From a virus (lineage: Duplodnaviria; Heunggongvirae; Uroviricota; Caudoviricetes): a DNA stretch of 30,340 bases. Below the pieces are notes generated by a model that was not told the DNA's origin, did not search any database, and worked only from the letters and a program-made list of their open reading frames with translations. A program made the position numbers and the translations under genes. Shown here one piece after another: positions 24,347 to 26,165 of the stretch. Within the stretch, counting starts at the first letter, position 1, and each line of letters opens with the position of its first letter. The DNA lies in IMG/VR virus record IMGVR_UViG_2531839446_000015, one strand, 5' to 3'.

Positions 24347-24933
24347 TGACTTTTAAAATGAGTGAAACCGATCAAGCAGTTACTGTTTATAACCTGCGTT
24401 CCGACACGAATGAGTTTATTGGTTCGGGGGACGCTTTTATTCCCGCACATACCGGACTGCCAGCCAACTGCACCACAATAAAACCACCGGTAATCAAAGC
24501 AGGGTTTGTGGCAATTTTTGATTCAGAGAAGCAAAGATGGATTTCCCGTGAGGATCATCGTGGCGAGGTGGTGTTTGATACAGAAAACGGTAATGAACTG
24601 GTGATCACCGAGCCAGGCGCTTACCCGGAAGGGACAACCACGTTAGCACCGGCTAATGCCTGGCAAAAATGGAATGGTAAGGCGTGGGTGGATGATGCGG
24701 AGGCCATGCGAATTGCATTAGTCAGCGAGGCAGACGCCGAAAAGAAAAGACTGCTTAAACAGGCCAATGACGCCATTGCCACATTGCAGGATGCCGTTGA
24801 TTTAGACATGGCAACCGAAGAAGAAGCATTGCTGCTTACCGCATGGAAAAAATACCGCGTTTTACTGAATCGTATTCAACCGGAAGATGCGCCAGAAATT
24901 GTGTGGCCGGAGGTGCCTGGAAATGTGGCGTGA
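24346..24933 (+). CDS. Tail fibre assembly protein (Tfa / gpG-like)
   Basis: 195 aa; immediately after the fibre gene (stop-start overlap); acidic C-terminal region typical of Tfa chaperones. Confidence 0.75.
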   Translation: MTFKMSETDQAVTVYNLRSDTNEFIGSGDAFIPAHTGLPANCTTIKPPVIKAGFVAIFDSEKQRWISREDHRGEVVFDTENGNELVITEPGAYPEGTTTLAPANAWQKWNGKAWVDDAEAMRIALVSEADAEKKRLLKQANDAIATLQDAVDLDMATEEEALLLTAWKKYRVLLNRIQPEDAPEIVWPEVPGNVA

Positions 24934-25648
24934 AGCACGTCTGGCCTTCACGGATTCAGTTGCTGCGCTGAACTGTTCGATCGTCCCTGCGCATCCGTGG
25001 ATTTATGGGCTGGGACAGCAGACAGCGAACGGGGCATATCTCAGCCCGGTTAATACCGTTCGCTATCTTGCTGAACGCCTGGCCGGAACAGGGGGGAATG
25101 CGGATGTGGTGATTATGATGGTCACCGGACAGACGCAGGAAAACTTTATGGCCAGCCTGAATAACCTGGTCGGGATTTTCCCCGCCCCGGCATTCACGCA
25201 GGTCAAACGGCTGGCGCAATCCGCCGCAGTGCTGGCTATTGAAAAGATGCAGATTCCGGCGAAAACCGCCGCTGCGTTACCTGCGTCCATTCCGCTGTCT
25301 GTATCAACCAGCAGGGCAGCTTTATCTGCTGCGGCAATCAGCCAGGCACAAAAGGCGGCGGGTGCCGGGTTTGATATCGAAGGGCTGAAAAAACAGCTGG
25401 GCGAGTTCACGCAACTGCGTGACCAGCTTATCAGTGATGTGGCCAGCGGCCTGAATGATTTACAGGGGAAGAGTGCCAGAGCGTGGGTTTTTACTGCCAG
25501 CGGAGACACCGGCACCACGTTACTGGAACTGGTGAAGGACATTCCGCAGCAGTCTGCCGTTTACACCGCAGCCATGATGCTGGTTGGCGATAATCTTGAT
25601 GGAATAAAGGGAATGATTCATGACTTCGATCCCGACACTGGCGCTTAA
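24923..25648 (+). CDS. Hypothetical protein (241 aa), late region
   Basis: From ATG 24923 with GGAGGTG Shine-Dalgarno; codon usage matches the phage; no family recognised. Confidence 0.5.
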   Translation: MWREARLAFTDSVAALNCSIVPAHPWIYGLGQQTANGAYLSPVNTVRYLAERLAGTGGNADVVIMMVTGQTQENFMASLNNLVGIFPAPAFTQVKRLAQSAAVLAIEKMQIPAKTAAALPASIPLSVSTSRAALSAAAISQAQKAAGAGFDIEGLKKQLGEFTQLRDQLISDVASGLNDLQGKSARAWVFTASGDTGTTLLELVKDIPQQSAVYTAAMMLVGDNLDGIKGMIHDFDPDTGA

Positions 25649-26165
25649 TGGCGAGGCTATCCAGCTGAAAAACATGCGGGTGACTGTTTCACAGCAATTT
25701 CAGGATAAAGATCAGTCCGGCCAGACCAGCGCCACAACAAAATCAGAGCAGGGAGCAAAGGGAAAGGAACTGCGGATCAGCGGTGAAATACCTTTTAAAC
25801 AGCCTGAAATACTGAAGCGTATTTTTGAGCTTGCCAGCGCTACCGATGCCAGTGGTAATCGTCAAAAGTACCGTGTGGCGCATGAAGTTGCCCGTGCTGT
25901 TAATTTTCGTGAAGCAACGTTCAGCGGAATGCTGGATGCACCCCAGCAGGACGGGAAAATGTCCTGGCTGGTGACGTTCACACTGGCGGAACATATCAGC
26001 GTGCAGGAAAAGCGAGAGGCCAGAGCAACAGGTAAGACGACCGCAAAAAAACAGACTGCCGGTAGTGCGGGACAGGCCGGTGGCCAGTCTGCCGGAGAAG
26101 ATGAAGAAAAACTGACGTGGTTTGAACGCAAGGTGCTGAAGCCCGTCAATGATGCTTTGGGTTAA
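25620..26165 (+). CDS. Hypothetical protein (181 aa), late region
   Basis: AAGGGA Shine-Dalgarno; overlaps the upstream gene by 29 nt; Gly/Ala/Gln-rich C-terminal segment; no family recognised. Confidence 0.5.
   Translation: MTSIPTLALNGEAIQLKNMRVTVSQQFQDKDQSGQTSATTKSEQGAKGKELRISGEIPFKQPEILKRIFELASATDASGNRQKYRVAHEVARAVNFREATFSGMLDAPQQDGKMSWLVTFTLAEHISVQEKREARATGKTTAKKQTAGSAGQAGGQSAGEDEEKLTWFERKVLKPVNDALG

Follow-up and report, generated by a model that had tools for sequence, protein, structure and literature searches.

A predicted tube initiator and a candidate minor baseplate protein encoded between the tail-fibre assembly and hub-spike genes of an HP1-type prophage

Two genes of the virus record IMGVR_UViG_2531839446_000015 (IMG/VR; Caudoviricetes) were investigated in a stretch of 30,340 nucleotides (nt), here called the window. 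These open reading frames (ORFs), ORF-A (241 amino acids, aa) and ORF-B (181 aa), lie between the gene for the tail-fibre assembly chaperone Tfa and the gene for ORF-C (567 aa). The results favored a joint reading, to which we assign a probability of roughly 60%, in which ORF-B is the tube initiator, ORF-C the hub-spike protein, and ORF-A a minor baseplate protein of the virion. The three proteins would then constitute a hub module at the centre of the baseplate. On the model of P2 gpU, PA0626, and Pam3 gp17, six copies of ORF-B would assemble as a ring on top of the hub-spike trimer (ORF-C) and serve as the template for polymerization of the tube around the tape measure, while its flexible linker and C-terminal helix probably reach to the wedge, as in P2 gpU. 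ORF-A would be translationally coupled to the tube initiator and may act as a peripheral stabilizer or 'glue' where hub and wedge meet; in P2, this role belongs to the LysM protein gpX. The copy numbers and contacts are proposed by analogy with these systems, and a glue role for ORF-A by elimination.

An original prediction, made from the DNA alone, had reported two unassigned genes between a fibre assembly gene and a hub/spike gene. Their coordinates and lengths were correct, and the features relevant to the proposed hub module are as follows:

24923..25648, + strand: ORF-A, HP1 orf33 family, 241 aa, PHROG 1677
25620..26165, + strand: ORF-B, HP1 orf34 family, 181 aa, Pfam PF25759
25620..26024, + strand: ORF-B residues 1-135, predicted tail-tube-fold domain, containing the conserved hairpin DKDQSGQTSxTxKSEQGxKxKEL (residues 29-51)
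26025..26162, + strand: ORF-B residues 136-181, variable Ala/Gly/Gln-rich linker, predicted to be disordered, followed by a predicted C-terminal amphipathic helix (LTWFERKVLKPVNDALG)
26165..27868, + strand: ORF-C, HP1 orf35 family, 567 aa, PHROG 2258 'baseplate protein' (E 3e-274)

ORF-B as the Predicted Tube Initiator

ORF-B matched the Pfam family PF25759 ('HP1 ORF34 baseplate complex protein') with 183.5 bits (E 3.7e-54; gathering threshold 27 bits). The match spanned residues 6-181, corresponding to profile positions 2-176 of 180, and the same domain was carried by all ORF-B homologues (120/120) among the matches listed. The earlier statement that neither protein has a recognizable family therefore did not apply to ORF-B. 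It held for ORF-A, which had no Pfam or NCBIfam match and belonged to PHROG 1677, a group with no assigned function (E 2.3e-75).

An AlphaFold2 (AF2) model of ORF-B, based on an alignment of 56 homologues, showed a confident core of beta-strands and one flanking helix (predicted local distance difference test, pLDDT, 88-93 for residues 50-125). A long hairpin (residues 28-45) was poorly predicted yet extremely conserved. The modelled fold, a tail-tube (Hcp-like) beta-sandwich with a long hairpin, is that of the tube initiator class, and the five best structural matches of the model were tube initiators or ripcords. Structure prediction thus bore out the earlier suggestion that ORF-B might be a divergent baseplate or tail component analogous to gpU. 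In the remainder of the model, pLDDT was below 50 for linker residues 138-161 and a helix was predicted at residues 167-179. This C-terminal helix motif was common to enterobacterial, Aeromonas, Pseudomonas, PV94, yong1, and SMHB1 proteins and was missing in those of K139, ACA1, and C5a. Its use as a docking site for ORF-A was rejected, since the motif also occurs in phages without ORF-A.

The ORF-B gene adjoins the hub gene, with its stop codon overlapping the ORF-C start at 26165, and the major tube protein is encoded by a separate gene (16652-17107). Given this separate major tube gene and the coupling of ORF-B to ORF-C, tube initiation is the role that fits ORF-B best. The initiators used for comparison were P2 gpU, pyocin R2 PA0626, Pam3 gp17, Pa193 gp38/gp39, the N-terminal domain of Mu gp43, and T4 gp48/gp54. 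ORF-B and P2 gpU share a tube domain, a linker, and a C-terminal helix, and their genes lie next to the hub gene (U-D in P2). In a P2 cryo-electron microscopy preprint, six gpU are placed on three gpD and the C-terminal gpU helix touches the wedge. In contrast, ORF-B lacks the long ripcord domain of PA0626 (the pyocin R2 ripcord, 285 aa), the large C-terminal domains of Mu gp43, and the LysM domain of initiators of the extracellular contractile injection system (eCIS)/phiCD508 type.

Based on its modelled fold and its gene context, ORF-B is very probably the tube initiator and a functional analogue of P2 gpU. At the level of sequence the two proteins were not alike: the Pfam profile Phage_P2_GpU gave no match to ORF-B at E <0.1, and an hhalign comparison of the ORF-B profile with P2 gpU returned a probability of 0.2%. 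A published HHpred link to gpU, at 15% identity, was labelled 'uncertain' (PMC10612066). A tube-fold protein might also act in another position, either as a second tube or adaptor ring or as a Dit-like distal tail protein. This role is improbable for ORF-B in view of the identity of its five top structural matches, the adjacency and coupling of its gene to the hub-spike gene as in the U-D pair of P2, the parallel with gpU in linker and C-terminal helix, and the failure to find another candidate initiator among the late proteins scanned.

Several homologues of ORF-B are evidently misnamed in RefSeq/GenBank, as 'adenine glycosylase' (NC_070917 gp34, NC_027368 gp45, and NC_047775 gp47), 'nucleoid DNA-binding protein' (NC_030940 gp33), or 'tail-collar fiber protein' (NC_049477 gp45).

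ORF-C as a Fused Hub-Spike Protein

Sequence matches identify ORF-C as a fusion of a gpD-like hub (N-terminal ~230 aa) and a gpV/gp5-like spike with a predicted OB fold, beta-helix, and HSH tip. Residues 413-508 matched the T4 gp5 beta-helix in a PDB sequence search (E 4.5e-7) and residues 292-355 matched a VgrG OB region (E 0.009). The Phage_base_V match was marginal (23.0 bits versus a cut-off of 23.8) and that to Gp5_C weak. PV94 splits this protein into gp46 (matching residues 7-226) and gp47 (matching residues 243-504). Fusion of gpD and gpV homologues in HP1 orf35 has been reported, and the hub homology of the N-terminal part of ORF-C rests on published HHpred results (PMC10612066). VgrG similarly joins a hub module to an OB fold and a triple beta-helix within a single chain. 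The N-terminal hub of ORF-C (~230-290 aa) is shorter than gp27 or gpD, and there is no lysozyme domain.

No BLAST-level similarity was observed between ORF-C and P2 gpD or gpV. Similarly, no matches to the LysM/gpX, gpU, gpD, or gpV families occurred among the late proteins scanned, and BLASTP or hhalign comparisons with P2 gpU, gpX, gpD, and gpV found no similarity. The absence of P2-type family matches in the late proteins indicated that the gpX, gpU, gpD, and gpV roles are filled by divergent proteins.

Selection, Synteny, and Distribution of the Three Genes

ORF-A and ORF-B are real genes under purifying selection. In a comparison set of 80 related IMG/VR loci, full-length intact copies without internal stops were found in 80/80 loci for ORF-A and in 79/80 for ORF-B. 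The median ratio of non-synonymous to synonymous substitution rates (dN/dS) relative to the window was 0.105 for ORF-A, 0.058 for ORF-B, 0.062 for ORF-C, and 0.083 for both gpJ and gpI. An alternative, longer ORF-A frame of 253 aa begins at the ATG at 24887. However, the 241-aa start is supported by an M1 that is nearly invariant and a W2 that is invariant among 75 homologues, and by the RefSeq annotation of a near-identical phage, which likewise gives 241 aa.

The trio corresponds to HP1 orf33, orf34, and orf35 (UniProt P51737, P51738, and P51739) and to K139 orf37-39; in YenM_324 and phiO18P (gp44-46 in the latter), its counterparts close the series of late genes. The trio is also present in HP2, F108, Kappa, ESSI-2, and the ESSI2_ev phages. 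Order, position after the fibre assembly gene, sizes, and gene overlaps are identical in the HP1-type trio and the window, with nothing substantive different. Identities of ORF-A/ORF-B/ORF-C were 98/98/98% to ESSI2_ev015, 29/40/40% to HP1, and 24/42/34% to K139, and a tblastn search with ORF-A found HP1 orf33 at E 5e-11. The gene order is kept in phages of Haemophilus, Pasteurella, Vibrio, Aeromonas, Pseudomonas, Yersinia, Cronobacter, Salmonella, and Escherichia. A homologue of ORF-A occupies the equivalent slot, upstream of the orf34 homologue, in HP1, K139, phiO18P, phi3, YenM_324, ESSI-2, and ACA1 (hidden Markov model, HMM, E 2e-17 for phiO18P, 2e-9 for Pseudomonas phi3, and 1e-11 for ACA1 gp46). 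Its slot beside ORF-B is kept across seven host genera, including where the fibre cassette differs. Synteny had been named as a check in the original prediction, and both genes were found in the same slot across related phages, in the 80 loci and beyond.

Among the 80 loci, the C-terminal half of fibre H and Tfa were often replaced, showing either no match or 35-60% identity across one third of the protein. In contrast, ORF-A, ORF-B, and ORF-C were full-length and co-linear and diverged in step with the DUF2590 protein (W), gpJ, and gpI. This difference places a recombination boundary of the fibre cassette between Tfa and ORF-A. In ACA1, the position before the ORF-A homologue is taken not by a Tfa gene but by a VHML-type antireceptor with a diversity-generating retroelement (DGR) cassette, and hub and spike are encoded by separate genes. 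Since the slot is kept there without Tfa, the constant partner of ORF-A is the tube initiator and not the fibre chaperone.

These observations bear on the proposal that ORF-A is part of the tail-fibre system, where it would serve as an additional fibre chaperone or as an adaptor between fibre and baseplate. Its gene lies directly 3' of that for Tfa, with an 11-nt overlap, and PV94, yong1, and C5a lack both Tfa and ORF-A. Nevertheless, this proposal is distinctly improbable. Besides the exchange of fibre and Tfa sequences next to a co-divergent ORF-A, ACA1 retains ORF-A beside an entirely different antireceptor/DGR module, a small gene but no ORF-A separates fibre and ORF-B in SMHB1, and the PF12571 domain at the fibre N-terminus is shared by phages without ORF-A.

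ORF-A is thus conserved among HP1-type tails without being universal to them. ORF-B was present in yong1, PV94, a V. cyclitrophicus prophage, C5a, and SMHB1 (E ~1e-37 to 1e-42), and a tblastn search with K139 orf37 found 50 phage records, none of which came from the subclade of these phages. Dependence of ORF-A presence on Tfa or on hub-spike fusion was rejected, as both correlations are broken by ACA1, which has ORF-A, lacks Tfa, and encodes hub and spike separately, and by SMHB1.

Two further observations were made on these relatives. A marine subclade of HP1-subgroup phages (yong1, PV94, the V. cyclitrophicus prophage, C5a, and SMHB1) lacks orf33 and has separate hub and spike genes, and its Vibrio members (PV94, yong1, and the V. 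cyclitrophicus prophage) have a gene of ~65 aa after the spike gene. In Pseudomonas phage phi3 (NC_030940.1), an unannotated gap at ~28459-29370 (locus ~7460-8371) encodes the ORF-A homologue, which matched the A1 profile with E 2e-9 and the broader A4 profile with E 3e-45; the hub part of the phi3 orf35 homologue (record ~29909-30592) also appears to be unannotated.

ORF-A as a Candidate Minor Baseplate Protein

The ORF-A family comprised 256 clusters at 50% identity (E at most 1e-3), with lengths of ~210-320 aa. No domain fusions were found among the 256 representative clusters, and odd longer proteins look like assembly chimeras. An AF2 model, built with 75 sequences that included a Pasteurellaceae branch gathered with HP1 orf33, showed an alpha/beta core formed by the N-terminal 100 and C-terminal 55 residues and a helical middle of low confidence. 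ORF-A proteins of the K139, phiO18P, and phi3 types have an extra segment of ~55 residues after the N-terminal strand, which is absent from ORF-A of the window; the N-terminal extension of the K139-type proteins had no Pfam match, including none to LysM.

Experimental evidence comes from ACA1 gp46, the only member of the ORF-A family for which mass spectrometry (MS) provides evidence of virion association. This distant homologue (209 aa), also linked to HP1 orf33 by a published HHpred match, immediately precedes the orf34 homologue in gene order. The conserved MW...HPW...YLSPxNA region at the N-terminus of ORF-A is missing from it. In ACA1 virions, gp46 ('HP1 orf33') was detected with two spectra, 6% coverage, and a spectral count normalized to molecular weight (SC/MW) of 0.09 (Table S2, PMC10612066; GenBank OR438928). 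Corresponding SC/MW values were 0.08 for gpW, 0.05 for gpJ, 0.06 for gpV, 0.19 for gpD, and 0.23 for gpI, and according to the authors, proteins unexpected in virions went undetected (PMC10612066). For the virion proteomics proposed with the original prediction, these data point to an ORF-A homologue in particles, with the limits that they consist of two spectra and concern one distant relative.

On balance, the most likely identity of ORF-A is a virion protein of low copy number, associated with the baseplate and without a recognized fold. By elimination, as no LysM/gpX equivalent was identified in the HP1 subgroup, a role as glue or stabilizer appears most likely. The likeness of ORF-A to P2 gpX and T4 gp53 lies in this proposed role alone, that of a baseplate protein of low copy number whose gene accompanies the hub module. 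P2 gpX is an essential LysM protein of 67 aa, whereas ORF-A has 241 aa, shows no LysM fold or sequence likeness, and is absent from some HP1-subgroup phages. The earlier suggestion of a divergent baseplate or tail part analogous to gpX is thus plausible as to location, in view of the homologue in the virions of a distant relative, and did not hold for a LysM/gpX fold. A more specific proposal, which we consider possible but doubtful, is that ORF-A is a baseplate component with a fold new to solved contractile injection systems, specific to part of the HP1 subgroup, that replaces the LysM glue or adds a new accessory function.

Several results weigh against the proposed hub module and, in particular, against the place of ORF-A in it. 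The ORF-A model was of moderate quality (pLDDT 67; predicted template modelling score, pTM, 0.59), yielded nothing convincing against the PDB and no Foldseek match at E <0.1 in BFVD, and was not LysM-like, and no LysM sequence profile was found in the protein. The MS support for ACA1 gp46, two spectra with 6% coverage, came from a preparation partly contaminated by cellular material (PMC10612066). ORF-A was not found in the whole PV94 genome or in the late regions of yong1, the V. cyclitrophicus prophage, C5a, and SMHB1, and none of these five has a known substitute. The existence of such phages indicates that HP1-type tails can apparently be built without ORF-A, which weakens the notion of an essential glue. 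Finally, searches of the PDB with the sequences of the sheath protein, gpJ, ORF-A, and ORF-B, and with profiles of the latter two, found no relative. As there is also no experimental structure of an HP1-type tail, positions and copy numbers follow by analogy only.

A non-structural assembly factor that is not kept in the particle, such as a catalyst of hub or spike assembly like T4 gp51 or a chaperone of the tube initiator or tape measure, would be produced along with the hub module and would be compatible with part of these data. ORF-A evolves faster than its neighbors (29% identity to HP1 versus 40-60% for ORF-B, ORF-C, W, J, and I; dN/dS 0.105 versus 0.06-0.08), its middle third, modelled as helical with low confidence, is rich in Ala/Ser/Gln, with weak coiled-coil or FlgN-like noise matches in homologues, it is dispensable in the PV94, yong1, and C5a lineages, and the virion evidence amounts to two spectra. 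However, the normalized count in ACA1 virions equals that of bona fide baseplate proteins in a dataset whose authors saw no unexpected proteins, and ORF-A has no similarity to known chaperone families. An assembly factor is therefore unlikely, and a structural position in the baseplate is preferred.

A 'structural protein' label in the YenM_324 record has no supporting note in that record, and a search of the literature on HP1 orf33-35, K139 orf37, vB_YenM_324, and ESSI-2 found nothing specific.

Phage Identity, Late Operon, and Cargo Region

Sequence similarity identifies the window as a Peduoviridae prophage of the ESSI-2-like type (HP1 subgroup, genus Quadragintavirus). At the nucleotide level, the region was 96-97% identical to the Quadragintavirus members ESSI2_ev015, ev129, ev239, and ev040, all Escherichia phages, with Cronobacter phage ESSI-2 as a more distant relative, and was found in 44/5426 complete E. 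coli genomes. In these genomes, ORF-A is labelled 'hypothetical protein', and ORF-B carries the same label or, in newer annotations, 'baseplate complex protein'.

The late genes form an unbroken run on the + strand from the sheath gene through ORF-C, and the HP1-type gene order from sheath to orf35 was seen in the window, HP1, K139, and YenM_324. In addition to the hub module, the following features were located:

15528-16655, + strand: sheath, DUF2586
16652-17107, + strand: major tube, HP1_Orf24
between tube and tape measure, + strand: lysis genes, then tail assembly chaperone
18677-20644, + strand: tape measure
20623-20970, + strand: DUF2590 gene, recorded in ACA1 as a gpW-like sheath initiator (GenBank OR438928)
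ending at 22151, + strand: gpJ
22138-22731, + strand: gpI
22742-24346, + strand: fibre H
24346-24933, + strand: tail-fibre assembly chaperone Tfa (Caudo_TAP, E 5e-36)
27881..27905 (27881-27897 in the scan), + strand: intrinsic terminator, end of the late tail operon, GCCCGCATAATGCGGGC then TTTTTTAT
28384-29100, - strand: moron of PHROG 1962 'glycosyltransferase', 238 aa
29557-29721, - strand: Q/P-rich ORF, 54 aa
29714-30340, - strand: DUF6338 membrane protein, running off the window end

The start of the longest gpJ frame (GTG 20913, 412 aa) is probably ~54 nt too early (window 20913-20966): an annotated homologue has 394 aa, and 40/65 related loci contain stops within the first 18 codons.

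ORF-A and ORF-B are the third- and second-from-last genes of the late tail/baseplate operon. Overlaps of 11 nt between Tfa and ORF-A, 29 nt between ORF-A and ORF-B, and 1 nt between ORF-B and ORF-C, together with one terminator after ORF-C, indicated a single operon. Shine-Dalgarno-like motifs precede the ATGs of both ORF-A and ORF-B, no promoter or terminator was found between Tfa and 27881, and the sole strong terminator lies directly 3' of ORF-C (27881-27897). K139 has an annotated terminator in the equivalent position, after orf39. The GC content of ORF-A and ORF-B (0.51-0.56) resembles that of neighboring late genes. In P2, the hub module follows the tape-measure gene, whereas in this lineage it is found at the operon end, after the fibre genes.

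The original prediction had also named the Z/fun locus of P2 as an insertion site for accessory genes behind fibre assembly gene G. This description was correct for P2, where G is followed by a terminator and the reverse-strand gene fun(Z), a non-essential lysogenic-conversion gene. A corresponding origin of ORF-A and ORF-B, as moron or defence cargo inserted after the fibre assembly gene, might also seem compatible with the lack of a recognized fold or function for ORF-A. Such an insertion can be given next to no weight in the window. The two genes are co-directional with the late genes, translationally coupled by their overlaps, and without a promoter or terminator of their own; their GC content is that of the phage, their slot and order are conserved in phages of nine host genera, and ORF-B has a predicted tail-tube fold. 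PADLOC found no defence matches for either protein. Thus neither a defence family, nor independent signals, nor a patchy spread, features that would mark anti-phage defence genes or accessory cargo, was observed for ORF-A and ORF-B. The cargo or lysogenic-conversion locus of the prophage is instead the region after the terminator (27900-30340), where GC content falls to 0.39-0.42 and the genes lie on the reverse strand.

Annotation and Additional Observations

Both gene families are already catalogued, near-identical sequences are present in GenBank, and the gpU/gpD/gpV correspondences have been sketched in the literature. The value of the present assignments lies in annotation. Current labels include 'hypothetical protein', 'putative phage gene', 'adenine glycosylase', 'nucleoid DNA-binding protein', and 'tail-collar fiber protein', and the names supported here are 'tube initiator' for orf34, 'minor virion protein, HP1 orf33 family' for orf33, and 'fused baseplate hub-spike' for orf35. 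With these assignments, the parts list of the HP1-type minimal baseplate would be complete, with orf33, dispensed with in some lineages, as its one component of unrecognized fold. If ORF-A is indeed a baseplate component with a new fold, the sister lineages PV94, yong1, and C5a, which lack it, would offer a natural comparison for the contribution of the extra subunit. There was no sign of a defence or host-conversion function, and no wider biological consequence is indicated.

A 78-aa ORF (window 13539-13775, + strand) between the small-terminase and head-completion (gpL) genes was considered as a gpX candidate and ruled out, as it encodes a His-rich fibre-repeat peptide and not a LysM protein. 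It consists almost wholly of four copies of a 45-bp repeat (13560-13750, in tandem; 98% matches) encoding GAHTHTVGAHSHSLG. The ORF matched the Pfam family 'Phage tail fibre repeat' (E 2e-7) and resembled HxH repeats at the C-terminus of the phage's own fibre protein. Its equivalent in ESSI2_ev015 is annotated 'L33', and HP1 has no gene at this position.

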